Positions 8,959 to 49,995 of a stretch of 64,000 bases of DNA are shown one piece after another. The stretch is taken from the IMG/VR virus record IMGVR_UViG_3300028887_000087; one strand, given 5' to 3'. Source of the stretch: a virus. Taxonomy: Duplodnaviria; Heunggongvirae; Uroviricota; Caudoviricetes. The notes beneath the pieces were generated by a model that was not told where the DNA came from, ran no database searches, and worked only from the letters and a program-made list of their open reading frames with translations. The translations under genes were made by a program, and so were the position numbers. Positions within the stretch are counted from its first letter, which is position 1. Each line of letters starts with the position of its first letter.

Positions 8959-10233
8959 ATGTCGAAAAATATCAGATGGCTTGCATATCAGCCTCTTATC
9001 GGCGGAATGGACATCGGAGCTGAAAAGGCTTTTGGCTGCCCACCTACTGCAGTTCTTGACTACGATGGAATTGCAAATTCGGAGTTGTATCTCAACTATA
9101 TGAATGAGGTAAAAGGCAACAAGCTTAAACATTTTTATTTGAATGGCGGAGCCTATTCTCTTGCTGAAGATTTCAAACCGGAAGTTGATGCAGAAGGAAA
9201 CGAAAAGGTTGTTTGGAATTGGGATATGCCTGAGTTTAAGGACCTTGATGTTGTTGTAGGTGTTCCTATTTGTGCAGGACTTTCTTCAGCAAATACTCAG
9301 TCAGGCAGCAACTCAAAGATGGGTCGTGGTTCTGATGCTATGCAGAACAACAATATGTTGGGTATGCTTTCGAATGTTTTGAAATATTTGAAGCCTAAAG
9401 TTTACATTTTTGAAAATGCTTACAAACTTGCAACACCTCTTGGAGCAGGTATCAAAGAAAAGCTTACAAAGATGGCAAACGAGGCAGGTTATGGTGTCAA
9501 CCTTGTAAAAGTAAATACTTTGCATCACGGTCTCCCACAGAACAGAACTCGTACATTTATGATTTGTGTAAAGGACAGCAACGCTCCTTATCTTGAATAT
9601 GATGGTCCTGCTCCTATTCCTGCAATTATGGACATCATTGGTGACTTGCCAAAACAGCAGGGTGCTTGTCAGGTTCGTTCAGCTGATGACGGCTGGATAA
9701 AATGGTTGAAGAGCAAATGGGGTGATAAATATCGCGAAGAGTGGGCAAAGCACAACGCTGCTGCTGACTTCTGTGCTGACGAATGTGGTGAACTTGCAAA
9801 TGTAAAGGACTTCTTCGAAAGACAGAAAGATAAAGACGATATTGATTACTTCATTTCAAAGAAAGCCCAGGGAAAAGGTTGGATGTCAGGTGCTCCACTT
9901 TATTTTGGTACACACAAACTTCCTTCTTTGTACGGTCGTTCAATGGGTCGTATTTGGCACCCAGTTGAAGAGCGTGGTTATTCAATCCGTGAATGTATGA
10001 GATTGATGGCTTTGCCTGATGATTTCCCAGAAGTACCTAAACAGAAGATGGGTATGATTGGTCAGAATGTTCCTGTATGTACAGCACAGTATTACTGTAA
10101 TGAAGTTAAGAAGTTCCTTGAAGGAAAACTTAACATTGCAGAAACACAGAATGTTGACCAAGACTTCTGCTCTGAGGCAAAAACAAAGCCGAAGAAATCA
10201 ATCCCAAGCGGGTTCAACAAGTTTATGAAATAA
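8959..10233 (+). CDS. DNA (cytosine-5)-methyltransferase-like protein with atypical motif IV
   Basis: Motif I LIGGMDIGAEKAFG; ENV-like IFENAYKL; motif VIII LPQNRTRTFMI; motif X GQNVPV; PCQ replaced by VPICAGLS. Confidence 0.6.
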   Translation: MSKNIRWLAYQPLIGGMDIGAEKAFGCPPTAVLDYDGIANSELYLNYMNEVKGNKLKHFYLNGGAYSLAEDFKPEVDAEGNEKVVWNWDMPEFKDLDVVVGVPICAGLSSANTQSGSNSKMGRGSDAMQNNNMLGMLSNVLKYLKPKVYIFENAYKLATPLGAGIKEKLTKMANEAGYGVNLVKVNTLHHGLPQNRTRTFMICVKDSNAPYLEYDGPAPIPAIMDIIGDLPKQQGACQVRSADDGWIKWLKSKWGDKYREEWAKHNAAADFCADECGELANVKDFFERQKDKDDIDYFISKKAQGKGWMSGAPLYFGTHKLPSLYGRSMGRIWHPVEERGYSIRECMRLMALPDDFPEVPKQKMGMIGQNVPVCTAQYYCNEVKKFLEGKLNIAETQNVDQDFCSEAKTKPKKSIPSGFNKFMK

Positions 10234-11678: not shown

Positions 11679-13175
11679 ATGGCAGAAGAGTTTCTTAAAA
11701 AAGTATATGACCGCTACTTGGGTTCTGATTATGAATTCGGTGATTCTGACTTAAACCCAAAAAGAGAAATTTCAAAAACTAATCTTGAAGAGTTGGAGCT
11801 TGAAGAAGATGCAATTATGGAAAAAATTGCAAATCGTCTTCGTGAGCTTCACGCAATGGCGACATCTCTGCCAAAGTACAAAGTTCCTGAAAAGATTGAT
11901 AACGATGACTTCAAGACAGAGTCTTCAGGTGCAGGTTTAGGACCTGACCCAAACCCAGAAGTAAATGCAAACGAACTCGCAATGAAATTGAGTTTGGGTG
12001 GTGACCCAACTGATACTCACTTATTGCTCCCAGGCGGTGGACTTGATTCTCAGGTTGACTTCTTGGTAGGCGAACTTGAAAACATTCTTATAAACGTTCT
12101 TGCAGTTTCTCCTCCTGAGCCTGGGCCTGGGCCATTCCCTGGGGGTGGTGGTGACTTAACACAATTATACAACCCTGGGTGTGATGACTTCGATGACGAT
12201 GGCAATGAAGAGTTTGAAGACCAAAGTAATCTTCTCGACGATTTGAAAAAAGGTATCAACGCATCTCTTAATTCCGATGGAAACGGAGATGACGACAGTG
12301 GCAACGAAGATGATGACGGTGGCAGTGGCGGTGGAGAAGCAAAAAAGAAAAGTGCTGCTGAAGCTGCTGACGATTCTGCAGGTGAAAATAACGCAAATAG
12401 AGACGCTGCCGCTGCTGAAAGAGAAAAAGAAGTTGTTGAATGTATTGCAAAAGAACTTCCTATTCTTTCGGCTATTCTTGCAATCTTAAAAGTTGTAAAT
12501 GTTCTTAAGAAAGTTCTTCTCTTAATTCTCACAATTGTTGTTCCTATTGTAAAGATGATTACTTTTGCTGCTCAGTGTTGGATTAACCCTCCTGCTGCAG
12601 GACAAGTTATTCAAATGGTAGCAGAAAAAATTGCAGCTTTACTTATTTCAGCAATCGGTGAAATTTTGCAAATGCTTTGGAATATGTTGGAACTTGATTG
12701 TAAGACAGAACAAGTACAGTCAGTACTTGACCAAATAAATGAAGTTCTTTCAGGTATTTCAAGTTCAATCAGTTCAACAAAGTCTGCTGCTATCAGTTTT
12801 GCAAATCAAGGTAAAGCTTTGGCAAATGAACTTGCTGATGCGTTTAGTAAAGACAAGTTTGAGCAAGGTGCTGAAAACTGGAAAAATGCAGTTAAGTCTT
12901 GGGCTGAAGAAGATTCTTGGAATCAGGGTAAAGAAGCATTCAATCAACAACTTTTTGGTGGAGAAGGCTTCTCAGGCGCAGGACTTGAAAATCTTATGTC
13001 GAAAGCTCTCCCACAAGATATTAAGAGTAAACTTAATAATGTTATCAACAGTACTAAACAAGTGGTTGATAATACAAAGAACGCAGTTAAAGAAGTTGAT
13101 ACTGAAGATAAGACAGGTGTTCAGCAGAAACTTAACGACCTTGCTTCATTCTTAGGTCCTTTCAGCGTAAAATAA
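11679..13175 (+). CDS. acidic low-complexity (D/G/P-rich) protein with central hydrophobic TM helices; possible internal virion/ejection protein
   Basis: PEPGPGPFPGGGGD, DGNGDDDSGNEDDDGGSGGG then ILSAILAILKVVNVLKKVLLLILTIVVPIV. Confidence 0.55.
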   Translation: MAEEFLKKVYDRYLGSDYEFGDSDLNPKREISKTNLEELELEEDAIMEKIANRLRELHAMATSLPKYKVPEKIDNDDFKTESSGAGLGPDPNPEVNANELAMKLSLGGDPTDTHLLLPGGGLDSQVDFLVGELENILINVLAVSPPEPGPGPFPGGGGDLTQLYNPGCDDFDDDGNEEFEDQSNLLDDLKKGINASLNSDGNGDDDSGNEDDDGGSGGGEAKKKSAAEAADDSAGENNANRDAAAAEREKEVVECIAKELPILSAILAILKVVNVLKKVLLLILTIVVPIVKMITFAAQCWINPPAAGQVIQMVAEKIAALLISAIGEILQMLWNMLELDCKTEQVQSVLDQINEVLSGISSSISSTKSAAISFANQGKALANELADAFSKDKFEQGAENWKNAVKSWAEEDSWNQGKEAFNQQLFGGEGFSGAGLENLMSKALPQDIKSKLNNVINSTKQVVDNTKNAVKEVDTEDKTGVQQKLNDLASFLGPFSVK

Positions 13176-13201
13176 AATATGAGACTAAATTATAGAGGTC
13201 A

Positions 13202-16200
13202 TTGATGAATTTAGATAACTTTTTTGACGGTACCGCAACAGATTGGACATCCCTTACAGGTGCTATTAAACAGAAGAAGTCTGTAAACGAAAGCTTCTTC
13301 AAAAAGATGTACGATGCTGCTGGGAAGACACCTCGATACAACACAGTAAAAGATGCTTATGGAAATTATGTAAATGTTCCTATCTCTGATACAAATGGCA
13401 CAGGCGCAGTTGCAAACGGTAAAAACGAATGGACTTTATCTGAGTTTTTGAATTTGCAAAAAGCTGGCGAAGATAGTGCTGAACTTGCATCTTACCTTGA
13501 CCTCAAAGGTTGGACATTAAGATCACTTGGCGATGACGCAGGTGAAAAGCTCAACAATCAAATAAATACTCAAGCTGCTTTACAAGTTATTCAAAACTTT
13601 TATGATATGTACATATCTCCTGTAGGTGAAACTGATGCAAAGTATCGTCTTGGTGATGTCACAGGTAAAGCAAAGCCGGGGACTGTAAATAATCAGACTG
13701 ATGAGTTCGGCCGTTTAAGAACTCGTGCGCTTTTCAATTCAAAAGTTGATTATAAAGAATGGGAAGGAACTTCTCTTAAAGATAAGACAGAATATTATTC
13801 TGTTATTTGGTTCCCACCTTATTCTCCATTAAATATTAAGCCTACTTCTTGGAAAGGCATCAGTACAAAAAAGTATGATAAAGCCACAGGTCTTGAAGTT
13901 GATAACAACGGCTATCTTCTTGATGCAACAGGTCAGCGTATTAAGTACAGAGGCGAAGACGGTAAATTGTATTACAGAAAGTCACAAGGTGAAACTTCTT
14001 CTGTAAGTACAATGACAATGAAAGATTACCTTGCACAAGCAAAAGATAAAAGACAAAAAGAACTTGATGAAAAGAATCAAGAGTTGCGTGATGACGGAAA
14101 AGAGGTAACTGTTACAGAAGCTGAAGACACTCGCCTTGCAATCAAAAACGAAACAGACAAGTATTACGATACTTATGATATGGAAAGTGGTCTTGCTGCT
14201 CGTTCTTCATTTACATATCGTGCGCCTGGGTTTAAGGCAATCAATGACAATATCAATATGTTGCAGTGGGTTCTTGAAGGTATGTCAGGTATCGTTTCAA
14301 CATATCTTACAGAGTGGGACCTTTCAATATATCTTCAGGAAGGTTTAGTGACTAATACTGAAAGCACTTTGCCTAACATTATTATGTTGACACACCGCTT
14401 GGATAAGGACAATCCTAATCAATACGGATGGAAAGATTCAGAAGGAAATCCTGATGACCGTGCTGCATCTTGGGGTGTTATCAACTGTGCCATTTCAAAA
14501 ATATACGGTGACAATCATAAGTCTTGGATAATCAACGCCTATCCTTATGCACAATGGCATACACTTTATCCCGACCCAACTGCAATGTCAGGTTGGCTTG
14601 ATAAGATTACTGCTGCTGATGGTACAACTGCTTATGTACCAAACTATTATAGAATTGCAAAGGCAGGCTTACGCAATTACTTGGAAGGAAAAGATAATCA
14701 CGGAAGAGTAAGAGGCGATTCAGTTCAGAACAGATTGATGTTCCAAGATTTTGAAGGTGCTGCTCTTTCAGGTTATAAAGAATGGAATTACGGCAACAAA
14801 ATTTGGAAAGCATTGTACACGTCTGCTGACGATGGCTTCTCTGATGTTGATATTCTTTTCTTGCAGACTGCAATCGGTCTTTATCACAAAAGAGATTTAA
14901 TTGAAGATGTTCAGATAATCAATTACCAAGTAGGTGGAAACGGTGAGCCTTATGATGGCTATGATATGATTGTCGGTGGTAACGATGCTTCAGGTAATGG
15001 TCAGAACACAGGTTATTCTTTCAATGACCCAGAAGAAGGTTCGGGTGGTAATAAGTACTGCCCAGGCTCAGTTTTCAAAGGTGCGTTGACATTCTTAAAT
15101 ATGTTCAATAAGAGAGACTCGTCAAAAGAGTCAGCACTTTCAAGAGCAGGCGCAAACGGTGACGGAAGCGTAAGTGAAAACAAAAATGTATATGGTACCA
15201 TTCAGGATTCTCTTGGTGCAACAAAAGCTGCGAGCTCAAACAATGCTATTGATGAAGGTGCTGAACACGCATACTTGTTAGGTACTGATAAAGGTCTTAC
15301 AGATAATTCAAACGGTGTTGGTGTACCTCAGTATAACCCAACACTTTATGGTGGACCTCACTCTTATTACCGTTCACCAAAATCATATCAATCTTACTAT
15401 CAGGAAAACAATATCTTCTTAAGAAATGTTCCTCGTATTGATAAGTGTCCTGACAGCTTTGACCACGATGCAGATAATGGTATTACTTGGCCATCACTTC
15501 CAAACTGGCAGGATAACTATTATTACAAAGGAAACGAAAAATGGTGTTCAAATGTTTCAGCTGTTGTAAACGGTGAAAGACAAGCTTATGAGCAATCTTG
15601 GTCTGCAGGTCTTGCAAGACTTAAAAAAGGACATCATAGTACAGGTGAAGTTCCTGCATATCTTCGTGTAAAAGTTTACAGTGATGTTGAGTTCTATGCA
15701 CAGCTTCAGTGGCACTGGGGTTGGAATTATTGGCACTGGGGTTGGTGGGAATGGAGATGGACTCGTCCAACACATTTCTCAAACGGTGAGCCTTATCATT
15801 ACGAAGGTTATGGTTGGTGGCAATGGTTCCACAAAGACCTCGGCTTGACTTCAAGTTGGTGGTGGTACGGTTGTTGGAATCACGGTTGGTACGATTACTA
15901 TTGGAATAGATATTATAATTACTCTTGGTATTACCGTTGGGAATGGACAGGCAACTGGTGGGGTTGGCGTTTGTCTGTTGCTTATTATGCGCCTTGTCAA
16001 AGAGCTTGGCATTATGAATGGAAATTTACAACATTCAAAAGATATGTACTCCATTCAGAGCCAAATGCGCCTTGGAGAATTGTTCAAACAAGACATTACG
16101 AATCTTATTTGCCAAACAACTCAAGCAGCGTATTTAAGAACGCTTGGAATAATTCTTATAGGGCATTATTCGGCTATTCAAGAGATTATGCGTACCTCTT

Positions 16201-19114
16201 TGCAACACAACCTAATGAGGATTACGAATTATTTGTAGACGGACCTCAAGGCGGCAATTATTCTAATTGGAGCATCCTCAATGAAGCAACAGGACAGGTG
16301 TTGAATGTTTACCAAACTAACGCTGAACACAATATTATGACAAGTATTGTTGACTGGTGGGGCGGTATGATTGGTGCGCACAACAAAGCATTCTTCTTGA
16401 CAAGAGATGGTGCGGGTCGTCCTGATTGTTTGTTCCGTGCGGAAATATTCCACAATCAAAAGCCAGTTTATTACTTCTGTTTACACTCAAGAACATATTC
16501 TTCAAATAAACGAAAGTATTGGTGGGAAAGACACTGTGGTTGGAAAACTTATATGTCTGTTAAGTTGTACTCAACTGACAGATTCTGGGCGGGACTTTCA
16601 AAGCCAACATTTACAAACTATGGTTCAGTAAATAACGGTGAAGAATCTATCGGTGTATCTTCTCCTCCTATTGATGGAAACGTAACTGCAGAAACTGCAA
16701 ACAACTCAATTCTTTCTGTAATGGGCGTAGGCTACACAGGTACAAATTGTTGCGAAACAAGAAAGACACCTTACGACCTTATCACAGGAATTACAGGAAG
16801 AGAAATTCCGTTATTTGATACAACAATCGTAGCAGACGGTATCGTCGGTGCTGACCGTATGATTGCATCTTATAACGGTATCTCAGGTGTAGGTATTATC
16901 GGTGACATCCCAGGCCTTGACTTTGAGGCAGATGACGGCGCGGAAATATATTCAAATAAATGTTGTTCTAAACAAAAAGCAGCTGATATGAACGGCGGCT
17001 CTTGGATGGATGTTGCTTTCAAAAATATAAGATTCCCAATGTGGCAGATTTCAGGTTGGATAAACAAAGGTGAAGTCACAATCAACGGAAACACTTATCG
17101 TCCTGAAGGAAACGGTTTTGCAATTTATAGTGAAATAACACCTCCTGATTGGTGGCACGCAATGATTCTCAATATGGGGTTGAGAAACACATTCTATCGT
17201 GGCGATGCAAACGGTCCTTTAAGAGTTAACTTCAAGGTTCTTCAGTACGGTATTGATGTTGAAGGAAAGAGCTTTGCTGATGCACTTACTTATATTGAGT
17301 CAAGAGGCTGTACAGTACAATCTGCTGCAGGTTCATTCAAGATTAAAGCAAGTGACATCAGAACTTATACAACAGTTAAACGTTTAGTCACATTAAGCAA
17401 AGATGGCGTTGAGTACGTTGAAAATCACGACATCGTAGACACAGTTTACTTAAAGAATGCTTGGTCTGCATTGAAGTATTATTTTACTTCTTTCGACATC
17501 GCACCAAGATTCTTGTATAATATTCTTGCAACACAAGAAGGTTATCTCAACTTTGCAAAAGACTTTATCTGCGGTAAAGATGAACACGGTCAGTACATTG
17601 TTTCATTTGACTTTATTCGTAAAATGATTGAAGGTACTGCAAAATCTCCTGGGCTTATTTCACCAAGAACTTATTATCTTGCTGACCCAAGAAAGAATTA
17701 TATTGCGGACCCTAATGGTGATGTAATTATCAATGAGAAAACAGGTTCTCAAAGTTCTCTTAATAGCAACGGTACTCTTCCTGCAGGTTGTATTAAAGCT
17801 TCTTGGTGTGAAGATATTTATGGCTATAATCCTTGGATTAAGACAGCTCGTGAATGGTTCTGCAACAGCCCTTCAGAAAATCAAAGATTGCACGATGACT
17901 TAGGTTTAGTACTTGACCAAAGAAAGAATACAATTCTTAAAGTACAACGTTTGCTTGAGCCTTATCTTTATATGGATATGGGTTCATATTCATACAACAG
18001 TATGAACACAGCTTGGAAGTCAGTAAATGAATTTATTGATTTGAAAACAAATGAAGAGCCTGAAAGATTCTTACTTGCTTACCTCAACGTATTGTATGAA
18101 GCAAGAAGATACTTTATCAATAAGAGATGTAATAAACAGGACGGTACTTTATGGATGTGTCGTCACCTTGAGAAGATGCTTCCTCAGGTTATCGGTTCCG
18201 CTGTTGCATCTGCAGGTACTGTTGATATGACAGCATTCCAAGGTAAGTCTTCAAAGATTGATGTTTCATTCTATGAAATACAAAATACACTTGCTATGAA
18301 AGCTGATGTTCTTAAGAAGCAGGCACAAGGTTCAAATGCAGAACTTGAGCCTGATAGAATTAAGACAGTTTATGTCAAGGTTAAATATGTTTCTTATGAA
18401 AGATACTTGGCTTGTCAAGCAAAACTCAAAGACGGTACATTAAAGCGCACTGACGAAAGAGTTGTTCCTGTTCAGCCTATTGCTTTCGTTAAGAAAAGAG
18501 ACGGTTCTTTCAAGAATAAAGCAAACGGTGATAAACTTGCTGCTGATGAAACTTGGAATGAAAACGGCTGGGCAATTAGAAAAGGTAAGATTAAGTACGC
18601 AGTTAAACCTGAAGACGGTGTTTATAAATTGTATTCAGTTGAAAAGCACCGTGATGAAGATAACGCTGCAAAGAAACTTCAAAATCCAAACGGTCCATAT
18701 ATCACATACGACTATGATGATGCAAAATGGAATATTGATTGGAGTAAGATGGCTGAAGATAATCAAATCCTTTTCAATTATTATGGCGGCGTTGATACTT
18801 CTGCTCTCAAGGATTTGACTGCAAGTGGTGAGACTGACCCACAGGCACTTCTTTGTGGTGCAAAGCAAGCAGCAGACTATTGGATCATTCCAGTTCAAAG
18901 TGCTTTGCCTAGAGCAATCGGTTATCGTTCTCAACTTACACTTGAAATGATAACAGATGGAAGTATTGGTATGGAAGGCGTATCAACAAAAGACAACCCA
19001 GTTGCTTTGGTTGGTGCTTCTGCTTATGCTATGTGGCCAATCGTTGAAGATCAAACAGACGTTATGCCAAATAACGGTGACTTTGCTAAAATTATGAGCG
19101 GTTTAGGAGCATAA
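13202..19114 (+). CDS. giant protein (1970 aa) with Trp-rich aromatic segment; probable virion structural protein
   Basis: Uninterrupted 5.9 kb ORF, AGAGG RBS; WHWGWNYWHWGWWEWRW... segment; no RNAP DxDGD motif. Confidence 0.7.
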   Translation: MMNLDNFFDGTATDWTSLTGAIKQKKSVNESFFKKMYDAAGKTPRYNTVKDAYGNYVNVPISDTNGTGAVANGKNEWTLSEFLNLQKAGEDSAELASYLDLKGWTLRSLGDDAGEKLNNQINTQAALQVIQNFYDMYISPVGETDAKYRLGDVTGKAKPGTVNNQTDEFGRLRTRALFNSKVDYKEWEGTSLKDKTEYYSVIWFPPYSPLNIKPTSWKGISTKKYDKATGLEVDNNGYLLDATGQRIKYRGEDGKLYYRKSQGETSSVSTMTMKDYLAQAKDKRQKELDEKNQELRDDGKEVTVTEAEDTRLAIKNETDKYYDTYDMESGLAARSSFTYRAPGFKAINDNINMLQWVLEGMSGIVSTYLTEWDLSIYLQEGLVTNTESTLPNIIMLTHRLDKDNPNQYGWKDSEGNPDDRAASWGVINCAISKIYGDNHKSWIINAYPYAQWHTLYPDPTAMSGWLDKITAADGTTAYVPNYYRIAKAGLRNYLEGKDNHGRVRGDSVQNRLMFQDFEGAALSGYKEWNYGNKIWKALYTSADDGFSDVDILFLQTAIGLYHKRDLIEDVQIINYQVGGNGEPYDGYDMIVGGNDASGNGQNTGYSFNDPEEGSGGNKYCPGSVFKGALTFLNMFNKRDSSKESALSRAGANGDGSVSENKNVYGTIQDSLGATKAASSNNAIDEGAEHAYLLGTDKGLTDNSNGVGVPQYNPTLYGGPHSYYRSPKSYQSYYQENNIFLRNVPRIDKCPDSFDHDADNGITWPSLPNWQDNYYYKGNEKWCSNVSAVVNGERQAYEQSWSAGLARLKKGHHSTGEVPAYLRVKVYSDVEFYAQLQWHWGWNYWHWGWWEWRWTRPTHFSNGEPYHYEGYGWWQWFHKDLGLTSSWWWYGCWNHGWYDYYWNRYYNYSWYYRWEWTGNWWGWRLSVAYYAPCQRAWHYEWKFTTFKRYVLHSEPNAPWRIVQTRHYESYLPNNSSSVFKNAWNNSYRALFGYSRDYAYLFATQPNEDYELFVDGPQGGNYSNWSILNEATGQVLNVYQTNAEHNIMTSIVDWWGGMIGAHNKAFFLTRDGAGRPDCLFRAEIFHNQKPVYYFCLHSRTYSSNKRKYWWERHCGWKTYMSVKLYSTDRFWAGLSKPTFTNYGSVNNGEESIGVSSPPIDGNVTAETANNSILSVMGVGYTGTNCCETRKTPYDLITGITGREIPLFDTTIVADGIVGADRMIASYNGISGVGIIGDIPGLDFEADDGAEIYSNKCCSKQKAADMNGGSWMDVAFKNIRFPMWQISGWINKGEVTINGNTYRPEGNGFAIYSEITPPDWWHAMILNMGLRNTFYRGDANGPLRVNFKVLQYGIDVEGKSFADALTYIESRGCTVQSAAGSFKIKASDIRTYTTVKRLVTLSKDGVEYVENHDIVDTVYLKNAWSALKYYFTSFDIAPRFLYNILATQEGYLNFAKDFICGKDEHGQYIVSFDFIRKMIEGTAKSPGLISPRTYYLADPRKNYIADPNGDVIINEKTGSQSSLNSNGTLPAGCIKASWCEDIYGYNPWIKTAREWFCNSPSENQRLHDDLGLVLDQRKNTILKVQRLLEPYLYMDMGSYSYNSMNTAWKSVNEFIDLKTNEEPERFLLAYLNVLYEARRYFINKRCNKQDGTLWMCRHLEKMLPQVIGSAVASAGTVDMTAFQGKSSKIDVSFYEIQNTLAMKADVLKKQAQGSNAELEPDRIKTVYVKVKYVSYERYLACQAKLKDGTLKRTDERVVPVQPIAFVKKRDGSFKNKANGDKLAADETWNENGWAIRKGKIKYAVKPEDGVYKLYSVEKHRDEDNAAKKLQNPNGPYITYDYDDAKWNIDWSKMAEDNQILFNYYGGVDTSALKDLTASGETDPQALLCGAKQAADYWIIPVQSALPRAIGYRSQLTLEMITDGSIGMEGVSTKDNPVALVGASAYAMWPIVEDQTDVMPNNGDFAKIMSGLGA

Positions 19115-20155: not shown

Positions 20156-20386
20156 ATGACGGGTACTTGGTTCAAAAGAACAAATGTCAAAGACGTCCTT
20201 AATGCTGTTGAGGACATCCTAACAAAAGAGTTCGTTTACGAAGTCAAGATTGAAAAACTTGGTAGCGGAGACGAAGTTATTTACAAACTTAAAGCGTATG
20301 TTTGTGAGGATGATGTTCGAAAGCTCAATGAGTTCCTTTACGAAAAGGGTTGGGCTAACGACCTAGAAACTTTATCTAAAAGATGA
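20156..20386 (+). CDS. hypothetical protein (~76 aa; TTG alt 20087)
   Basis: ATG 20156 after GGAGG RBS. Confidence 0.45.
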   Translation: MTGTWFKRTNVKDVLNAVEDILTKEFVYEVKIEKLGSGDEVIYKLKAYVCEDDVRKLNEFLYEKGWANDLETLSKR

Positions 20387-21126
20387 ACACAAAAACAATA
20401 AAAATTGAAAAAGAAAAAGACATTAAGAAATGTCGCAAAATCGATGACGTCCTTTATGTAGCAGAAATGATGAGCTACGATGGGAATATTATGCCTAAGA
20501 GTTTTGAAGGTTCGATTGGCTTATCTTGTGTGATATGTGGCGAACAAACAAAAATCATTGGTGAAAGAGCTTTTGCGAATTGCAAAAATTTAATTCGTTT
20601 TGATGGGTTTCCTGAAATTATTGCAAAGGAAGCTTTTTCTTTTTGTTCACGATTAAAGAACTTCAATTTTTCAAATGTTGCAAACTTATCAGAAAGTTCA
20701 TTTGCTTATTCAGGCCTTGAAACAATCGACATCCCAAGTAATATCAAAAACATCCCAAGTAATTGTTTCGCAGGCTGTCTTAATCTGAAATCAATCAACT
20801 TAAATGAAGTTGAACAAATTGAAGATGAAGCTTTTCAAACTTCAAGCTTAAGATATATCAAAATACAAAATCCGTTGGAACAGATTGGCAAAAAAGCTTT
20901 TGAAGGCAGTATGGTTTTGACTGACATTTTTGTTGAAAGAATCTTGCCGCCAAAAATCTTTTCTTCAACTTTCTACGGTTGTCCTATCCGCAATATTTAT
21001 TTTTATTCTGATGTTCAAGTTGACTTCTTTATAAGAGATAAGAATTGGTCTAAGTATCAAGATTACTTCAAAGTCATTTCGCCTAAAGATGCCAAAGTAC
21101 TTATCAATAACTTAAGGAGCCTTTAA
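20383..21126 (+). CDS. BspA-type leucine-rich repeat (LRR_5-like) protein
   Basis: Repeats FANCKNL / FSFCSRL / FAGCLNL / AFEGS every ~22-25 aa. Confidence 0.6.
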   Translation: MNTKTIKIEKEKDIKKCRKIDDVLYVAEMMSYDGNIMPKSFEGSIGLSCVICGEQTKIIGERAFANCKNLIRFDGFPEIIAKEAFSFCSRLKNFNFSNVANLSESSFAYSGLETIDIPSNIKNIPSNCFAGCLNLKSINLNEVEQIEDEAFQTSSLRYIKIQNPLEQIGKKAFEGSMVLTDIFVERILPPKIFSSTFYGCPIRNIYFYSDVQVDFFIRDKNWSKYQDYFKVISPKDAKVLINNLRSL

Positions 21127-21224: not shown

Positions 21225-22856
21225 ATGATAGACTACAAAAAATATTTCCCGTATGATAATATTCGTCCTGAGCAGGAAAGAGTGTTGTCTGAAATTGTAA
21301 AGAACTGGGATAACAAGAAGTATTTTATTTTGCAATGCGATGTTGGTACAGGTAAGTCGGGTATTGCAAAAACAGCCGCAAATTGGTGTGAGAACTCTTT
21401 TATCATTACAGAAACAAAACAACTTCAGCAGCAGTATGTTGATGACTTTGCTCACGAAAGAAATATGGTTTCTATCAAAGGTAAAGCAAATTACCCTTGT
21501 GATAGAAATGGTCGCCTCAACTGTGAAAATGGTCCTTGTACATTAAGAAAAGCAAGTGCAGAGCCGCCTAAGTGTATGTTCACTTGTAAGTATTATTCTC
21601 TTCGAAAGAAAGCTCTTGCATCTCAAATTGTACTTACATCTTATGCATATATTTTCCGCGCCTTCGATTGCAGTAATTTATGGAAGCCAAGAAAGTTGAT
21701 GGTTTTTGATGAGTGCCATCTTATCGAAGACCAACTTATCAATTTTGCTTCTTTTACAATTGACCCAGAACATCTTGATAAAATGTACGGCTTGTTTGAC
21801 AATCTTCCCGATAGAGATATGCACATTCAGCGTTTCACTGAAGATGGTTGGACAGAAAGTAATAAAGCAAGATTTGCTGTGACTTACGCTGCAGTTGTAA
21901 ACAAAAGAAATGAATTATTTGATATGATGAAAGAGGAACTTGGAGAAGACAACCCTGAGGACCTTGACGAAGATACTCTTGACATCTTATCAAAAACACA
22001 TAAGCTTTATTACGATATTGATAAACTTTACAAAAAGATGGAAGTATTCAACTTTCAGAAGAAAGATGATTGGATTGTTGCTTGCGATACTGAAGGACAT
22101 TTGACATTCACTCCATTAAATGTAAATTCTTTGTTCCATAAGTTCTGTAATAACTGGGCTGAAAAGTTTATCTTTATGTCTGCAACAATTCTTGACACTG
22201 ATGGCTTTATAAAAGAATTAGGTATTGACCCTAATCAGTGTCTTGTCGTAAAAGTTGAATCTTCTTTTGACCCAAGTAAGTCTCCTATTTATTTTATGCC
22301 TTGCGGAAGTATGAGTTATCAAAACATTGAAGAGTCTCTTCCTAAAGCTTGTCAGGCAATCGACTTTATTATGCAAAAGAAGCCAAACGATAAAGGCATT
22401 ATTCATACAGGCAATTATAAAGTTGCTGATAAAATATGGAATAGCATTCTCATACATAAACACAATCACGACCGCTTCTTAATAAAAGCAAGTGAAGATG
22501 TGACAAATCAAAACTTGTTGAAGATACACGAAAGATCACAGAACACTGTTCTCCTTTCGCCTTCAATGACAACGGGTGTTGATTTGAAAGATGACTTATC
22601 AAGATTCCAAATTGTTGTCAAAATGCCATTCTCTTCACTTGGTGACCCAAGAACAAAAAAGAAGTCTGAAATCAATTCTGATTGGTATACCTGTCAGATG
22701 TTGAAGAATTTGGTTCAAGCTTGTGGACGTTCAACTCGTTCAGCGGAAGACCATTCTGCAACTTTCATACTTGACTCTTCATTCCGTTATTGGGTAACGA
22801 AATATGAAAAGTGGCTTCCTAAGCAATTCTTACAAAGGATAAAAGGGTTCGACTAA
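21225..22856 (+). CDS. XPD/DinG/Rad3-family Fe-S ATP-dependent DNA helicase
   Basis: Walker A DVGTGKSG; 4-Cys cluster CDRNGRLNCENGPC...C; DECH box VFDECH; motif VI QACGRSTRS. Confidence 0.8.
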   Translation: MIDYKKYFPYDNIRPEQERVLSEIVKNWDNKKYFILQCDVGTGKSGIAKTAANWCENSFIITETKQLQQQYVDDFAHERNMVSIKGKANYPCDRNGRLNCENGPCTLRKASAEPPKCMFTCKYYSLRKKALASQIVLTSYAYIFRAFDCSNLWKPRKLMVFDECHLIEDQLINFASFTIDPEHLDKMYGLFDNLPDRDMHIQRFTEDGWTESNKARFAVTYAAVVNKRNELFDMMKEELGEDNPEDLDEDTLDILSKTHKLYYDIDKLYKKMEVFNFQKKDDWIVACDTEGHLTFTPLNVNSLFHKFCNNWAEKFIFMSATILDTDGFIKELGIDPNQCLVVKVESSFDPSKSPIYFMPCGSMSYQNIEESLPKACQAIDFIMQKKPNDKGIIHTGNYKVADKIWNSILIHKHNHDRFLIKASEDVTNQNLLKIHERSQNTVLLSPSMTTGVDLKDDLSRFQIVVKMPFSSLGDPRTKKKSEINSDWYTCQMLKNLVQACGRSTRSAEDHSATFILDSSFRYWVTKYEKWLPKQFLQRIKGFD

Positions 22857-22867: not shown

Positions 22868-23815
22868 ATGTTTAAGTTTAGTGACAACTCTTACATTGAA
22901 GGTCAGCTCGACCTATGTCAAACATTAAACAATAAATATGCCTCAATGGACGATTGTTTCTTCGAGCCTCAAGGCTATGATCTTGAGCGCTATGAAGAAA
23001 ATAGCGCTTTAGGAATTAAAAGAATTGTATTTGAGGCAGGAAAGAATTACGATTATCATAGTGACCGCGACACTGTACTTGCATATTGGAGAGCACGCGG
23101 TCGCCCTAAAGGCAACAATGCCGTACTTCACAAGTTTGAATATACAAACAAAACAAACCAAACCGCACAAGTTTTCGTTACTTATTATGACCACTTTCAA
23201 AATAATGAATTAAGCTATTACGATTGGAACGGAAACTATTGTCCTTATTTTTTTACAAGTTATTCAAGCGGCAGCAGTAGCAGTAGCGGTTCTTATGAGT
23301 ACGACTTCAGTGGTGATGGTGATATTGACGCAAGAATTCATTGCAAAAGAAATTATCGGTACGTAGAAGTAGCTTATTCTTGGACAACAGGTTGGTGGTT
23401 CTGGGAAGAGACACACTGGGGCACAAGAATGGAATGGAGATGGGAAGATGATTACACAACAGACTGCTCTGATAATAACCGTATAACATTTAAGTATTGT
23501 GATTTACCTCCTGGGCAAAATGTTGAAATTTATTTGAGTGGTGAAGATGGCAATTCGATACCTGACCCAGAATGTTATTTGAAAGTTGAAGTTATTTTTG
23601 ATGGCGATCTTCCTGAGGCCTCAGAAAAACCTGCTAATGAGCCAGCTACTGACCCATTCACAAAAGAAAGCTTAAATGGTTGTATAAATAATCTTAATCT
23701 TAAATGGGTTGAAGATAAGACATCTGACTCAAGTATCAATAATATGAACTTTGGTTGGGTTGATGATAAAGTTGATAATGAAGCAACAATTATGAATATG
23801 CATTGGAGAATTTAA
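22868..23815 (+). CDS. hypothetical protein with Trp-rich motif (WTTGWWFWEETHWGTRMEWRWEDD), likely structural
   Basis: ORF; Trp-rich motif resembling giant protein segment. Confidence 0.5.
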   Translation: MFKFSDNSYIEGQLDLCQTLNNKYASMDDCFFEPQGYDLERYEENSALGIKRIVFEAGKNYDYHSDRDTVLAYWRARGRPKGNNAVLHKFEYTNKTNQTAQVFVTYYDHFQNNELSYYDWNGNYCPYFFTSYSSGSSSSSGSYEYDFSGDGDIDARIHCKRNYRYVEVAYSWTTGWWFWEETHWGTRMEWRWEDDYTTDCSDNNRITFKYCDLPPGQNVEIYLSGEDGNSIPDPECYLKVEVIFDGDLPEASEKPANEPATDPFTKESLNGCINNLNLKWVEDKTSDSSINNMNFGWVDDKVDNEATIMNMHWRI

Positions 23816-26619
23816 TGGCTGAGTGTACTATTGTTTATCACGGAAGAGGCATATATAAATTAAACTCAGGTACTATCGTTAGCTTGTATGGCGGTGAGGC
23901 TACTTATAGCTTTAATGTAAGTGACAGCGTTAACATCAGCGATATAGGTACTTATATCAGAAGACTTTCTCCTCTTGATATATTTTACGATGCAGACCCT
24001 TCAATGCCTATGCCTATTTGGGTTAAAGATAACAGTGTTTCAAAAAGTAAATTAAGAAGCTATAATGGGCCTCTTGACTTATACATTGACCATTGTGAAG
24101 ATGGATTTTATAAAGGCGATAATAAAATTCGTTATGTGACAGTAAAGTCAGGTGAAAATGAAAATGCTGTTGAAATGTTTGCAAATTGTAGCAACTTAAA
24201 AGGTGCAAGAATTGAAACAGTAAATGTCTCAGACGCTTCTTCAATGTTTGCAAACTGCGAATCTTTAGAGGACATATCGGGTTTTCAAAGACTTGTAAAT
24301 ACAACAGCTGATTATATTTTCAGTAAAGATAAAAAACTTGCAAAGACTTTAGGTAAGAAAGGCGTTAAAGATACAATCGACGTTTTAGGACACGGACCTG
24401 AATGGTACGACGGCTTAAACAGAACATACTTCTGGGATTGCCCTTATAATGGAACTTTACCTGAATGGCTTGCAAATCAAGCACAAAGCGGCGCTGATTA
24501 TGATTGGCAAAAAAGTCAAGATAATTTCAATCCAAACATTCTTATCTTAAAAGCTATCAATAGTGTACCGTTGAAGAATAGGCTTGATACGCTTAATGAA
24601 ACAAGCACACCTAACCCAGATATAAAATCAGAAATTGACTTTATTGATGACTCAGAAGATAACTTACTTAATCTCCATTTTGATAACACCAATTATAGTG
24701 TGTCTTTTGATACTGAACTGCCTATCAACGGAACTGACCCTTCAAACTGGGTTCGTCAGGACCCTCATATAAGTATGACTGATAATTATGAGGACAAAGT
24801 AAAAGGCATTCAAAATCTTTTATACAACCTTAAAGATATATGGGACTATGGCGCTTTTGAAAATACAAAAGATCCAACACTTGAACTCAATACATCAGTT
24901 GTTCTTAATATGGAACATAATGGTCCAAAGCTTAATGATGTAATATCTCCTATATGGGACCCTGATGATAATTTCAGATTACATCTTAAAGAACTTGATA
25001 TTTCAAATACTATTAAAGAAACTAAAACAATTCAAGAGCATTACTGGGATGGACCTCATACATATAATGATAAAAGAATAAACAATAATAATTGGATTAA
25101 CGCCAATTTATTTATACCTGAAGGCGCTGAAAATACAGAAAGATGGTACAACTGGGTTATAATTGATACTATCACACATCTTGAAGGCAATTATGAAGAA
25201 CTTCGGGGATGGTGGATTGCAACAAAACGGATTCAGACAAAACACGAACCTGTATATGAATATCGTATTACGAATACGCAATATAACACAGGGTCTTACT
25301 TTTGGGTAAAAGATATTGATGAATGGAAAGAAGTCCCATATTTTGTAAGAAGAACTTATAATAATCAAGGACAAGAAATAGGCAACCCACAGCAGTATGA
25401 ATGGCCTTATCAAAAAGTTACTTGGACTCCTACAGGCGCGCCCAACAATAGCGCTTGGTATATCAGAGGAAGTGAAAGAACAGTCAACTATCGTAATTAT
25501 GTTGAAGCTTGGCCTCGCCCATATTATATTGACAAAACGCGTCCTCTTAATATTCAAGTACCTAAGAAAGTTAGATTACAAGACTCTGATTGTCCTGCTC
25601 AAGACATAAGCGGCATTTTCAAAGATGTACCTTATATTAAGACAATTGATTTCTCTATCAATAAAATAACAAAAGCTGATGAACTCTTTATGAATTGTAA
25701 AAATATTGAGTCAGCAATCGGTTCAATAGCAAATCAAGGACGTATTAAAGTTGAAAGTGCAAAACATATTTTTGATGGTGCTTTTATTACAGACCCACAT
25801 ATAGACTTTGTTGTTGATACACTTGATGCTGAAAGTGCTTTTGAAAACTCAGGTGTTGTTGACCCAACATTCTTTACAAGCTGGTCTTCAGTATTGAACG
25901 GTAATAAATTATTTAAGAACTCAAAAGTTGGAAGTCTTAGAAATGCAGTATTCCCAGAAGGAATACAAACAATTGCAGAAGCTTTTGCTGATTGTGAAAA
26001 CCTTGTTGATGTTGAAGGTAATTGGCTGCAGCCTAACTCAAGTATGCATTACCAAAACTATACATATCACTTGGACACAAACTCTTGGACAAAAGACTGG
26101 GTAAATCCTACAAGTAAAGATGGGTACTTCTATTTCCCAGATAGTGTTCAAGATATTCACAGTCTTTTCAAAGATAGCGGACTTCAATCAGTAAAAGAAT
26201 TAGCTTTGTTGCGTTTTGGTAATAACGATAATGTATTTGATGGCTGTCATAATCTTACTGAAATTGAAAATCTTTACTTAAATGAAAATCCTAATTATGG
26301 CAACATCTTCTATGATACACCTAATCAAAATAAAGATTGGAGAATTTGGTTCCCAACAAACATTAAAAGTTCTTACGCAAATGCAGCCGATATTGGTCTC
26401 GACCCTTATAAAGTCCCTAATCTTTATTGTGATGATGGCTTTATTGTTGTTGATAATGAATCACCCGATTCACAGGTTTATAGACGAGTTGCTTATGAGG
26501 CTGTTCTTAATCCTGAAAGAAAGTTTAAGTTTAATTACTTTTCTCATATACATCCTCATACAATTGACAACAATCGTTTCTATCACGAGATACACGATGT
26601 GGACGTTTGGTATAAATAA
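23815..26619 (+). CDS. large putative structural protein (934 aa) containing BspA-type LRR repeats
   Basis: GGAGAA RBS, TAATG coupling; FANCSNL / FANCESL / FMNCKNI / FADCENL repeats. Confidence 0.55.
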   Translation: MAECTIVYHGRGIYKLNSGTIVSLYGGEATYSFNVSDSVNISDIGTYIRRLSPLDIFYDADPSMPMPIWVKDNSVSKSKLRSYNGPLDLYIDHCEDGFYKGDNKIRYVTVKSGENENAVEMFANCSNLKGARIETVNVSDASSMFANCESLEDISGFQRLVNTTADYIFSKDKKLAKTLGKKGVKDTIDVLGHGPEWYDGLNRTYFWDCPYNGTLPEWLANQAQSGADYDWQKSQDNFNPNILILKAINSVPLKNRLDTLNETSTPNPDIKSEIDFIDDSEDNLLNLHFDNTNYSVSFDTELPINGTDPSNWVRQDPHISMTDNYEDKVKGIQNLLYNLKDIWDYGAFENTKDPTLELNTSVVLNMEHNGPKLNDVISPIWDPDDNFRLHLKELDISNTIKETKTIQEHYWDGPHTYNDKRINNNNWINANLFIPEGAENTERWYNWVIIDTITHLEGNYEELRGWWIATKRIQTKHEPVYEYRITNTQYNTGSYFWVKDIDEWKEVPYFVRRTYNNQGQEIGNPQQYEWPYQKVTWTPTGAPNNSAWYIRGSERTVNYRNYVEAWPRPYYIDKTRPLNIQVPKKVRLQDSDCPAQDISGIFKDVPYIKTIDFSINKITKADELFMNCKNIESAIGSIANQGRIKVESAKHIFDGAFITDPHIDFVVDTLDAESAFENSGVVDPTFFTSWSSVLNGNKLFKNSKVGSLRNAVFPEGIQTIAEAFADCENLVDVEGNWLQPNSSMHYQNYTYHLDTNSWTKDWVNPTSKDGYFYFPDSVQDIHSLFKDSGLQSVKELALLRFGNNDNVFDGCHNLTEIENLYLNENPNYGNIFYDTPNQNKDWRIWFPTNIKSSYANAADIGLDPYKVPNLYCDDGFIVVDNESPDSQVYRRVAYEAVLNPERKFKFNYFSHIHPHTIDNNRFYHEIHDVDVWYK

Positions 26620-31174: not shown

Positions 31175-31195
31175 ATTATTTTTTGGAGGTTGCAA

Positions 31196-32830
31196 ATGAT
31201 GATGGTATTTGCGATTGCGGGAGGAGCAACACTGTTCGTTCTCCTTTTGATTATGTTCTTTGTTGGTTATTTCAAAGCTCCAACAAACAAGTGTTATGTT
31301 ATTTCAGGTTTGAGAAAGACAGCCCGTAAAGTTATCGGTAAGTCCGGTTTCCGTATTCCGTTCCTTGAACGTAAAGATGAACTTACACTCGATTTGATTT
31401 CAGTCGATGTAAAGACACAGGAAGCTGTTCCTACTGCTGAATGTATCAATATTTCAGTTGATGCTGTTGCAAATATTAAGATTGGTACTTCTGAAGAAGC
31501 CTTGGCAAAAGCTGCACAGCACTTCTTAAATAAAGATGCTCGTGACATCAATGCAACTGCCCGTGAGGTTCTTGAAGGAAACTTGCGTGAAATTGTTGGT
31601 ACAATGTCTTTGAAGGCTATGATGAATGACCGTAAAACTTTTGCGGAAGCCGTTCAGCAGAATGCCGTTCCTGACTTGGACCGTATGGGTCTCGAGATTG
31701 TATCTTTCAATGTTCAGAACTTCAGTGACGAGCAGGGTGTAATCAACAACCTCGGTATTGACAATATCGCAACAATTCAGAAGAATGCTTCTATTGCAAA
31801 GGCAAATGCTAACAAGGAAGTTGCTGTTGCAGAAGCAAAAGCTCGTGAGGAAGCAAACGATGCAAAGGTTGCAGCAGATACAGCAATTGCTGAAAAGAAC
31901 AACGCTCTTGAAGTTCGTAAAGCTGAACTCGAAGCTGCCCGCTTGAAGGAAGTTGCAAAGTCTGAAGCTGCAGGTGCTATCGAAAAGGAAACACAGCGTA
32001 AGACAATCGAAATCACAAAGCAGAATGCCGAAATCGCCCGTCTTGAAAAAGAGACTGAGTTGAAGGAACAGGAAATCGCAATCAAGGAAAAGGCTCTTGA
32101 TGCTGAAATCAAAAAGCAGGCTGATGCTGAAAAGTATGCTGCACAGACAAAGGCTGATGCTGAACTTTATGAAAGAACAAAGGCTGCTGAGGCTGAAAAG
32201 ATTGAACGCGAACGCAATGCGGAAGCAAATCTTATTGCTCTTCAGAAGAAAGCTGAAGCTGAAAAGTACGAACAGGAAAAATCTGCTGAAGCTTTGATTG
32301 CAAAAGCTGATGCTGAAAAGAAAGCAAAGGTTGCAGAAGCCGAAGGTCAGAAAGCTCTTGCTGAAGCAATTCAGGCAAAGGGTGAAGCTGAAGCTGCCGC
32401 TGTAAAGGCAAAGCTCCTTGCTGAAGCAGACGGTATCAAACAGAAGGCCCTTGCTGAGGCTGAAGGTTTGAAGGAAAAAGCTGAAGCTATGAAGCAGTAC
32501 GGTGATGCTGCTAAGATGCAGATGGAACTTGATACTTTGAAAGTTCTCTTTACACAGTTGCCTGAGATGGCAAGAGCTGCAGCAGAACCTTGGAGCAAAG
32601 TTGGAAATGTCACAATCTATGGTGGCGGAAAAGACGGTTCAAGTGGTGAAATGCTTACAGGCAACATCACAAAGACAATCACACAGGTTGCAAGCGGCTT
32701 GAAAGACAGCCTCGGTATCGACCTTGGAAGTGTAGTATCATCAATGCTAGCAGGTAAACTTGCAGGCAAAGAACTCGGCGCTGCTCTCGATGCTGCAACA
32801 AAGTCAACAAAGAATCCAAAAAGTGAATAA
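31196..32830 (+). CDS. flotillin-like SPFH/band-7 family membrane protein
   Basis: N-terminal TM helix, SPFH-like domain (PFLERKDELTLDLISVDV...), ~250 aa EA/K-rich flotillin-type coiled-coil repeats; GGAGG RBS. Confidence 0.75.
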   Translation: MMMVFAIAGGATLFVLLLIMFFVGYFKAPTNKCYVISGLRKTARKVIGKSGFRIPFLERKDELTLDLISVDVKTQEAVPTAECINISVDAVANIKIGTSEEALAKAAQHFLNKDARDINATAREVLEGNLREIVGTMSLKAMMNDRKTFAEAVQQNAVPDLDRMGLEIVSFNVQNFSDEQGVINNLGIDNIATIQKNASIAKANANKEVAVAEAKAREEANDAKVAADTAIAEKNNALEVRKAELEAARLKEVAKSEAAGAIEKETQRKTIEITKQNAEIARLEKETELKEQEIAIKEKALDAEIKKQADAEKYAAQTKADAELYERTKAAEAEKIERERNAEANLIALQKKAEAEKYEQEKSAEALIAKADAEKKAKVAEAEGQKALAEAIQAKGEAEAAAVKAKLLAEADGIKQKALAEAEGLKEKAEAMKQYGDAAKMQMELDTLKVLFTQLPEMARAAAEPWSKVGNVTIYGGGKDGSSGEMLTGNITKTITQVASGLKDSLGIDLGSVVSSMLAGKLAGKELGAALDAATKSTKNPKSE

Positions 32831-33145: not shown

Positions 33146-33436
33146 ATGGGAGTTTCTTTCGATTGCACAAAAGAAGAACATATTTTCAGAAAGAAGCCTG
33201 TGACTATTGCAGCGATTGGTTGGAATGGTAAAAACTTTGATGCAGTGAAAAAGTTTGCAGGCGATAATGTTTACCTTGAGAACGGTGAATTGATTATCAA
33301 AACTTTGGAAGACGGGGTTGACGGAAAAGTAAAGCACGCAGCAACTGTTGGTGATTTTGTTATTCGTGGTGTTAAAGGTGAATACTACTTCTGCAAACCT
33401 GACATCTTCGAAGCAACTTATGAGGTTGTTGAGTAA
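33146..33436 (+). CDS. hypothetical protein (96 aa)
   Basis: GGAGGA RBS. Confidence 0.5.
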   Translation: MGVSFDCTKEEHIFRKKPVTIAAIGWNGKNFDAVKKFAGDNVYLENGELIIKTLEDGVDGKVKHAATVGDFVIRGVKGEYYFCKPDIFEATYEVVE

Positions 33437-37888: not shown

Positions 37889-37893
37889 CTAAA

Positions 37894-45700: not shown

Positions 45701-45712
45701 GAGGTACACATT

Positions 45713-45925
45713 ATGAGCATCACAACTTATGACGACGATTTTATCAACAGAAAAGTTGAACAATATCAGAAGACCCGTTATAAAAGTGATGCTCACGGTG
45801 TTTACGATAACGAAGAAGATATTCGAGCAGAAGAAGAATACGACAACGGTTTTGAACAAGGAAGAGATGAAGGCTTCTTTGATGGTTATCTTCAGTGCTT
45901 AAAAGACTTAGGAATAAGAAAATGA
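45713..45925 (+). CDS. hypothetical acidic protein (70 aa)
   Basis: AGAGG RBS. Confidence 0.45.
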   Translation: MSITTYDDDFINRKVEQYQKTRYKSDAHGVYDNEEDIRAEEEYDNGFEQGRDEGFFDGYLQCLKDLGIRK

Positions 45926-47268: not shown

Positions 47269-47274
47269 TATTTT

Positions 47275-49992: not shown

Positions 49993-49995
49993 AAA

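Follow-up and report, generated by a model that had tools for sequence, protein, structure and literature searches.

Few DNA enzymes are understood as well as the cytosine-C5 DNA methyltransferases, whose Pro-Cys-Gln and Gly-Asn motifs are regarded as near-universal. A phage gene that departs from both raises the question of whether its product still acts on cytosine C5 and which group it transfers. The gene lies in a 64,000-nucleotide stretch of a virus of the class Caudoviricetes (IMG/VR record IMGVR_UViG_3300028887_000087), hereafter the window, which is 64 kb of a 220-306 kb genome and to which our negative results on its gene context refer. The open reading frame (ORF; 8959..10233, plus strand) starts with ATG, encodes 424 amino acids and is preceded by a GGAGG ribosome-binding site 9 nt upstream. 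The initial annotation of this locus, made from the letters alone, described the product as a C5-methyltransferase-like enzyme in which VPICAGLS replaces the canonical catalytic motif. Judged from its sequence, the ORF is best explained as a catalytically competent DNA cytosine-C5 transferase that belongs to a large phage-only branch of the C5-methyltransferase superfamily.

Fold, selection and motif register

The protein matched Pfam family PF00145 with E = 2.2e-21 (77.1 bits, cutoff 22) over profile positions 57-324 only, so that its N-terminal part, which would bind S-adenosylmethionine (SAM), was not recognised. The closest sequence matches in the PDB, M.HhaI (E = 4e-8) and M.HaeIII, covered motifs V-VIII and IX-X only. 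The AlphaFold2 model, for which 36 family sequences served as input, was confident (predicted local distance difference test score, pLDDT, 90; predicted template-modelling score, pTM, 0.89), and its top Foldseek matches were all C5-methyltransferases (MET1, HaeIII, HhaI, DNMT1 and CmoX), with E-values down to 5e-16. Compared with HhaI and HaeIII, the model showed the two-domain C5-methyltransferase fold at template-modelling (TM) scores of 0.65-0.68, normalised by Foldseek to the bacterial enzymes. Between the gene and relatives 96-98% identical to it in amino-acid sequence, the ratio of nonsynonymous to synonymous substitution rates (dN/dS) was 0.06-0.11, and motifs IV, VI, VIII and X were free of substitutions. 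The identical protein was present on 13 contigs; a sequencing error or a pseudogene is ruled out by these data. The ORF is real, is under purifying selection and has the fold of a C5-cytosine DNA methyltransferase.

The register of the motifs was determined by profile-profile alignment (hhalign) of the family with M.HhaI, whose sequence agreed exactly with PDB 1MHT/10MH. Motif IV aligned without a gap, P103, I104, C105, A106 and S109 standing opposite HhaI F79, P80, C81, Q82 and S85, and VPICAGLS matched HhaI GFPCQAFS with Pro replaced by Ile directly before the Cys and Gln by Ala directly after it. The non-canonical motif IV noticed in the initial annotation is genuine, as the alignment places Ile104 and Ala106 around Cys105; a normal PCQ concealed by mis-registration, which had been named as a finding that would refute the observation, is ruled out by the same alignment. 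Distant relatives with LPPCAGLS (cyanophage S-TIM54) and CPCAGLS fell into the same motif IV register and thereby confirmed it. The one-residue insertion that had been proposed in this motif did not survive the ungapped alignment and the common register of the PPC and CPC relatives, and the change is a substitution. All motif strings quoted in the initial annotation were found at their places, and their identities were confirmed by the profile alignment to HhaI.

Among the catalytic residues, E152 corresponds to HhaI E119, and R196 and R198 to R163 and R165. In motif VI the sole change was Val121 to Ala (ENV to ENA), with E152 kept. In motif X, Q369 and N370 occupy the positions of HhaI N304 and S305, and in motif I, Q11, L13 and G15-G16 those of F18, G20 and G22-G23. 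As read from these alignments, the protein carries three departures beyond those reported earlier, namely Asn to Gln369 in motif X, ENV to ENA in motif VI and FxGxG to QPLIGG in motif I.

A residue signature specific to the family

A word-indexed search retrieved 43 homologues of 98-29% identity, several of them on contigs of 200-295 kb, and an HMMER profile search of 1.84 billion representatives yielded 435 clusters (50% identity) at E<=1e-30, of which the top 150 matched full-length. Residues were tallied in 183 family sequences (28-98% identity) and, in the same scan, in 85 canonical C5-methyltransferases from cellular genomes, retrieved with search patterns that excluded the tallied positions. 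The catalytic Cys was invariant in the family (controls: C81 in 84/84), as were Glu152 and the motif VIII pattern QxRxR (Q194, R196 and R198; controls: R163 and R165 in 85/85). The residue before the Cys was P in 73, I in 57, V in 39, L in 7 and F in 5 family sequences, against P80 in 84/84 controls; the one after it was A in 103, S in 69 and G in 7 and never Gln, against Q82 in 81/84 controls. Gln occupied the motif X position in 181/183 family sequences, while the controls had N304 in 72/82, Glu in 10 and Gln in none; ENA was present in 182/183, against V121 in 85/85 controls. Motif I of the family reads [Q/I/V]-P-L-[I/T]-G-G with the Leu and both Gly invariant, as compared with F18 in 81/83 and G20 in 75/83 controls.

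The combination of A/S/G at position 82 with Gln at position 304 (HhaI numbering) occurred in 181/183 family sequences and in 0/85 controls, and none of the departures of the window protein from the canonical motifs was seen in the 85 control enzymes. The signature is real and specific, because it is absent from controls whose search patterns excluded these very positions. The family divides into subfamily A, with [C/P]PCAGLS in motif IV and [I/V]PLxGG in motif I, and subfamily B, with P[I/V]C[A/S]GLS and QPLxGG, which holds the window gene. Several phages carry two paralogous copies (L007 10001-12500; L059 and L086; L090/L094 on one 266-kb contig), either in tandem or about 25 kb apart, whose motif details differ, e.g., ENA/ENV and PICAGLS/PLCGGMS.

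Distribution of the family

Carriers among cultured phages were 6 of 50,697 records, represented by Pseudoalteromonas phage XG4 (vB_Psh_XG4) and the cyanophage S-TIM5 group. XG4 has the gene in a full cluster of ThyA, HAD, NTP-transferase, two glycosyltransferase and methyltransferase-like genes. A collection of 185,579 species genomes contained full-length members at six loci only, all on 61-410 kb contigs of metagenome-assembled genomes in gut or rumen Firmicutes bins; these contigs look like jumbo phages, and on one of them, of 306 kb (JAZNWZ010000130.1), the gene is 97% identical to the window gene. The remaining matches in this collection were partial matches to canonical enzymes, and no family member was found in its bona fide cellular genomes. 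Hence the family is, in essence, confined to phages. Its members showed no restriction-modification context, those of full length in the collection lying only on the phage-like contigs of 61-410 kb. Our literature searches found no publication on the family or its signature and nothing relevant on the DNA chemistry of S-TIM5 or XG4.

Genomic neighbourhoods of the relatives

Neighbourhoods were sampled at 79 IMG/VR loci plus others, in which ORFs were called and 1,816 neighbour proteins clustered. Recurrent neighbours included a glycosyltransferase-like protein, usually encoded directly upstream (32 loci, 10 lineages), a ThyA homologue (24 loci, 13 lineages), an NAD-dependent sugar epimerase/dehydratase together with a sugar nucleotidyltransferase, and the replication proteins PolB, RecA, DnaB and Mre11. 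Other recurrent neighbours, which had no profile match, look from their sequences like a P-loop deoxynucleoside monophosphate kinase, a HAD phosphatase and additional glycosyltransferases. In every neighbouring ThyA homologue the residues equivalent to N177, D169 and L143 of E. coli ThyA are Asp, a pattern shared exactly with T4 gp42; the gp42 sequence used for reference agreed with the PDB, and the numbering was checked. According to the diagnostic residues that distinguish the enzyme types of the ThyA family (PMC13326640), these Asp residues assign the homologues to the deoxycytidine monophosphate (dCMP) hydroxymethylase type and rule out thymidylate synthases and 5-hydroxy-dCMP synthases.

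A hydroxymethylase, glycosyltransferase or sugar gene was located within 10 kb in 11/13 subfamily-A lineages and 6/20 subfamily-B lineages, and within two genes in 10/13 and 4/20, respectively; 14/20 subfamily-B lineages, that of the window included, had no such gene within 10 kb. At one subfamily-B locus (L170, 9319-11753), the gene of a relative of the window protein (P0030, 41% identical, VPICSGLS) overlaps with its start the 3' end of a gp42-like gene by 17 nt; a dUTPase/DCD-fold gene comes immediately after it, and PolB next. The locus looks like a translationally coupled cytosine-replacement operon with a C5-methyltransferase-like enzyme.

Another subfamily-B gene (L006, 1664-9764) stands beside the TET-associated glycosyltransferase TAGT (PF20691) and three GT2 genes; the locus also holds an unannotated protein of 542 amino acids, and no TET/JBP was detected there. 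TET/JBP (PF12851) had no match in the precomputed Pfam annotation of nine loci, and none was present in the top 25 families of 121 unannotated immediate neighbours, single-member families lying beyond these. Ligases of the RimK/glutathione-synthetase ATP-grasp type adjoin the methyltransferase-like genes in two lineages with the hydroxymethylase/glycosyltransferase module (L036 11584-13984 and L061 1215-2858), which, in view of CmoY from the CmoX system, hints that an amino acid is ligated to a modified base.

Proposed function of the enzyme

We put at about even chances that the window enzyme performs SAM-dependent cytosine C5 methylation for anti-restriction. The enzyme would bind duplex DNA and flip out a cytosine, as suggested by its fold and motifs VI, VIII and IX. 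By the chemistry of M.HhaI, Cys105 would then attack C6 as Glu152 donates a proton to N3 and the base is kept in place by Arg196/Arg198, the C5 carbanion would take an electrophile from an adenosyl-type cofactor in a remodelled pocket (QPLIGG, Asn40, Ile104, Ala106 and Gln369-Asn370), and beta-elimination would free the enzyme. The invariance of the Cys, the Glu and Arg-x-Arg, combined with purifying selection on the gene, argues strongly for covalent C6/C5 chemistry on a flipped cytosine. In this phage, presumably a jumbo phage of gut Firmicutes with the gene alone among small early-type ORFs, the electrophile would most likely be the SAM methyl group and the product 5-methylcytosine, shielding the phage DNA from restriction. 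Gln369, longer than the canonical Asn, may compensate for the lost motif IV Gln, so that the pocket would be rewired rather than the reaction new; the near-universal pairing of A/S82 with Q304 is as expected for such a compensatory swap. The loss of Gln is not disabling in itself, because HhaI Q82A still methylates, although about 16-fold more slowly (PMC3526304). A stand-alone orphan methyltransferase also fits the lack of module genes in the 64-kb window and, within 10 kb, in 14/20 subfamily-B lineages.

Several observations weigh against plain methylation by SAM. The protein scored 54.9 bits with the NCBIfam dcm model (TIGR00675), under its cutoff of 100.65, and its N-terminal 90 residues lie outside the Pfam and PDB sequence alignments, so that SAM binding stays putative. 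The canonical FxGxG of motif I is lost (F18 to Q, G20 to L), and the acidic residue of motif II (equivalent to E40) is unconserved in the family, as against E/D40 in 81/84 controls. Positions 82 and 304 are those at which cofactor or transferred-group specificity is switched elsewhere, in engineered HhaI and in CmoX. Linkage to the modification module was seen in 11/13 subfamily-A and at least seven subfamily-B lineages, L170 being counted as an extra case; if every C5 in these module phages already carries CH2OH, plain C5 methylation would have no substrate there.

The serious rival, possible though less likely, is that the Cys/Glu/Arg machinery acts on cytosine or 5-hydroxymethylcytosine (5hmC) in DNA with a non-methyl outcome, either by transferring another group from SAM or a SAM-like cofactor or by using the covalent C6 adduct to exchange or derivatise the 5-hydroxymethyl group. 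A cytosine hypermodification not yet described would result, for which the small residue at position 82 would make room by C5 while Gln369 would hydrogen-bond a polar substituent. Gln82, Tyr254 and Asn304 of HhaI surround the transferable group (Lukinavicius et al., PMC3526304), and Q82A and N304A admit larger groups, extended-group transfer rising about 4-fold in Q82A and showing its largest gain in N304A (PMC3526304). CmoX, a natural phage enzyme, owes its use of carboxy-SAM to Arg350, which stands in place of HhaI Asn304 (Yang et al., PMC12783734), and canonical C5-methyltransferases are able both to bind covalently to 5hmC DNA and to remove its hydroxymethyl group (PMC11347137). The near-universal A/S/G82 and Gln304, the remodelled SAM loop of motif I, the operonic linkage to gp42-type hydroxymethylases and to genes of kinase-like, glycosyltransferase-like, epimerase and NTP-transferase proteins, the 17-nt overlap at L170 upstream of a dUTPase/DCD-fold gene, and the TAGT and GT2 genes beside another subfamily-B member point in the same direction. 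No TET/JBP was seen at the examined loci and neighbours that would account for the glycosyltransferases via oxidation of 5-methylcytosine to 5hmC.

On the other side, the alternative cofactor or product is hypothetical, and the window and its close relatives have no module gene within reach. The co-location may reflect a shared DNA-metabolism and replication module, as PolB, RecA, DnaB and Mre11 co-occur; the replacement of cytosine by 5-hydroxymethylcytosine in these uncultured phages is a prediction and may be partial; and the changes at Q82 and N304 could be a neutral compensatory swap. The initial annotation had suspected altered chemistry or substrate on the ground of the insertion together with the Gln-to-Ala change. 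The insertion premise was wrong, while circumstantial support comes from the altered HhaI Q82/N304 pocket positions and the 5hmC/glycosylation operons of relatives. On a tentative and rather improbable reading, the family is no plain methyltransferase but supplies a Cys-dependent enzyme that acts after replication in a cytosine hypermodification pathway not yet described, working with gp42-type hydroxymethylases and DNA glycosyltransferases; it would act on 5hmC DNA or install a non-methyl C5 group, the A/S82 and Q304 pocket would be the specificity determinant, and the window enzyme would be a stand-alone member. The gene may do more than ordinary methylation, its relatives being often found in hydroxymethylcytosine/DNA-sugar operons.

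Three further explanations have far lower probability. DNMT2 has the same fold switched to tRNA. A DNMT2-like cytosine-C5 methyltransferase of RNA (e.g., tRNA) would explain retention of the family in predicted 5hmC phages, where the DNA cytosines are already substituted, and would suit the atypical helical insert of the target-recognition region. We nevertheless regard it as very improbable: DNMT2 retains canonical PPCQ, ENV and GN motifs, unlike the phage family, the window has no tRNA genes, and the tight adjacency to DNA glycosyltransferase and replication genes points to DNA. A catalytically dead, base-flipping DNA-binding protein, as the initial annotation had considered, would accord with the absence of Pro-Cys-Gln and FxGxG and with the drop in methylation of about 16-fold caused by Q82A in HhaI. 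Such an inactive derivative is highly unlikely, because the catalytic Cys105, Glu152, Arg196 and Arg198 do not vary among the 183 sequences, which span 28-98% identity; dN/dS is low, and 40% of the family keeps Pro-Cys with the other changes the same.

C5 chemistry at the nucleotide level is known from the ThyA and ThyX folds, and no precedent for another was found in the literature searched. Action on dCMP or deoxycytidine triphosphate in place of DNA, a free-nucleotide substrate having been proposed at the outset, gained no support and has very little probability: the full two-domain architecture is kept, with motifs VIII-X and a 130-residue insert at the position of the target-recognition domain (TRD), although the translational coupling at L170 to a hydroxymethylase and a dUTPase-fold enzyme would agree with it.

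The question is of interest since this large phage-only family changes the very pocket positions by which engineers (Q82A/N304A) and nature (Asn to Arg in CmoX) switch the transferred group, and many of its members belong to operons expected to have swapped cytosine for 5hmC already, where an ordinary C5-methyltransferase would be idle. One outcome would be a naturally rewired methyltransferase active site; the other, if true, would be a new enzymatic route to hypermodified cytosine and of considerably greater importance. Either bears on phage anti-restriction biology and on tools for DNA labelling and epigenome sequencing, and the cultured carriers, Pseudoalteromonas phage XG4 and the S-TIM5 group of cyanophages, render the question directly testable.

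Features of the gene and of the window

The segments of the gene are collected in Table 1. Asn40 would sit roughly at the adenosine-contact position of HhaI Glu40-Trp41, and residues 206-335 align poorly with the HhaI TRD.

Table 1. Position of the methyltransferase-like gene and its segments in the window
Feature	Position	Strand	Basis
Divergent C5-cytosine methyltransferase-like enzyme, subfamily B of the phage-only family, 424 aa	8959..10233	+	Pfam, PDB match, model, Foldseek, dN/dS, ribosome-binding site
Motif I loop QPLIGG, residues 11-16	8989..9006	+	hhalign to HhaI F18-A19-G20-L21-G22-G23, family tallies, controls
Asn40, nearly invariant; ends 7-residue insertion after strand beta-2, before helix B	9076..9078	+	Model, conservation
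Motif IV VPICAGLS, residues 102-109, catalytic Cys105	9262..9285	+	Profile alignment, tallies, controls
Family-specific block GSDAMQNNNM, residues 124-133, N130 invariant; replaces canonical motif IV-V segment	9328..9357	+	Conservation, alignment
Motif VI FENA, residues 151-154; Glu152 = HhaI Glu119	9409..9420	+	Alignment, tallies, controls
Motif VIII PQNRTRTF, residues 193-200; Arg196/Arg198 = HhaI Arg163/Arg165	9535..9558	+	Alignment, tallies
Variable, mostly alpha-helical insert, residues 206-335, in TRD position; nearly invariant Lys301	9574..9963	+	DSSP of model, conservation
Motif IX region RGYSIRE, residues 339-345	9973..9993	+	Alignment, conservation
Motif X GQNVPV, residues 368-373; Gln369 at HhaI Asn304 position	10060..10077	+	Alignment, tallies, controls

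In the window the gene stands among small ORFs without Pfam matches. Custom hidden Markov models and Pfam scans of 50 larger ORFs revealed no homologues of the hydroxymethylcytosine/glycosylation module, and neither CmoA nor an asparagine-synthetase-type or amide ligase had a Pfam match among the scanned ORFs. A pair of ORFs (11679-19114, plus strand), coding for a 498-aa protein with acidic, Gly/Pro-rich low-complexity stretches and then for a 1970-aa product, both without a Pfam match, lies directly downstream of the methyltransferase-like gene in all close relatives (L003, L008-L010, L087 and L088).

The divergent ThyX, from which a non-standard pyrimidine pathway had been considered plausible, is encoded at 33436-34146 (plus strand) and is a true Thy1 family member (Pfam Thy1, E = 1.6e-33). 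The ORF has no canonical RHRxxS signature, reading YTHIGGAPTRLQASTRY / RELYTHIGGAPTRLQASTRY, and falls under the NCBIfam thyX cutoff (77 vs 87.9). Its divergence is confirmed but is a clade-wide trait: the THI-for-RHR variant was present in all 120 top homologues, many of them on 280-400 kb contigs, and is conserved throughout a large clade. The suggested connection to the methyltransferase-like gene was not borne out, as the two genes are 23 kb apart and no functional link was found.

A cluster for salvage and synthesis of nicotinamide adenine dinucleotide (NAD) extends over 44610-56062 (plus strand) and comprises a metallophosphatase, a nicotinamidase-like isochorismatase, a NUDIX protein, an NMNAT-like cytidylyltransferase-fold protein, NAD synthase (46420-47265) and NAPRTase (51661-53025); it may be an NAD-replenishing counter-defence module. 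Inside it, a 360-aa adenylosuccinate-synthetase homologue (49996-51078, plus strand) scored far under the cutoffs for purA (41 vs 396 bits) and PurZ (19 vs 300 bits), so that a PurZ (Z-genome) reading is unsupported and the protein is not a normal PurA either. The gene for a GGDEF diguanylate-cyclase-domain protein (37879-38898, plus strand) precedes one whose product joins a PolyA_pol/CCA-adding head domain to an HD domain (38936-40417, plus strand). Two BspA-type leucine-rich-repeat proteins and an SPFH/flotillin-domain protein (20383-21126, 23803-26619 and 31190-32830, plus strand) are unusual phage cargo, and a DEAD_2 (XPD/DinG-like) helicase is encoded at 21225-22856. Essentially all credible genes of the window (1-64000; 35-41% GC) are on the plus strand, GC skew is positive in each 2-kb bin, and cumulative skew climbs monotonically, which suggests a single long arm of a jumbo phage in which replication and transcription run in the same direction.

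Comparison with known systems

The window protein shares with the canonical enzymes M.HhaI, M.HaeIII and Dcm (PF00145) the fold, the motif order I-IV-VI-VIII-IX-X, the catalytic Cys, the Glu of ENx, QxRxR and RE. It differs from them in Pro80 to Ile, Gln82 to Ala, Val121 to Ala, Asn304 to Gln, Phe18 to Gln and Gly20 to Leu, in the 7-residue insertion after beta-2, and in the helical insert that takes the place of a beta-rich TRD. The best full-length viral structural match was the annotated C5-methyltransferase of the jumbo phage Bacillus phage G (UniProt G3MA42, 426 aa), with a TM score of 0.69 both ways; its identity is only 21%, and it was not retrieved by tblastn.

Phage C5-methyltransferases coupled to TET/5mYOX (PMC8256090; bioRxiv 10.1101/2023.12.21.572611) cluster, like the present family, with DNA glycosyltransferases, epimerases and nucleotidyltransferases. 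Here, however, the partner is a pre-replicative gp42-type dCMP hydroxymethylase, and the lack of TET/JBP in the nine annotated loci and in the top families of the 121 neighbours speaks against a TET-coupled enzyme. CmoX (PDB 8YF3; PMC12783734) is also a phage C5-methyltransferase homologue with the HhaI Asn304 position altered, the base it modifies becomes a handle on which hypermodification continues, and its group specificity is set at that position. As a match to the window protein it was weak by sequence (E = 1e-5) and ranked 30th by structure. CmoX is defined by its SPPC motif and Arg350 (PMC12783734); the window protein has VPIC and Gln369, with no CmoA or ligase among the scanned window ORFs, and membership is ruled out by the lack of SPPC and of Arg at the N304 position. 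By its sequence features the family sets itself apart, failing the defining features of CmoX and having no TET partner of the known phage C5-methyltransferase clades.

In the engineered M.HhaI variant Q82A/Y254S/N304A (mTAG, PMC3526304), positions 82 and 304 are altered likewise, and the Ala at position 82 is identical to that of the window protein. The natural family carries the larger Gln, not Ala, at position 304, and so appears from its alignment to alter these two positions in a third way, with A/S at 82 and Gln at 304.

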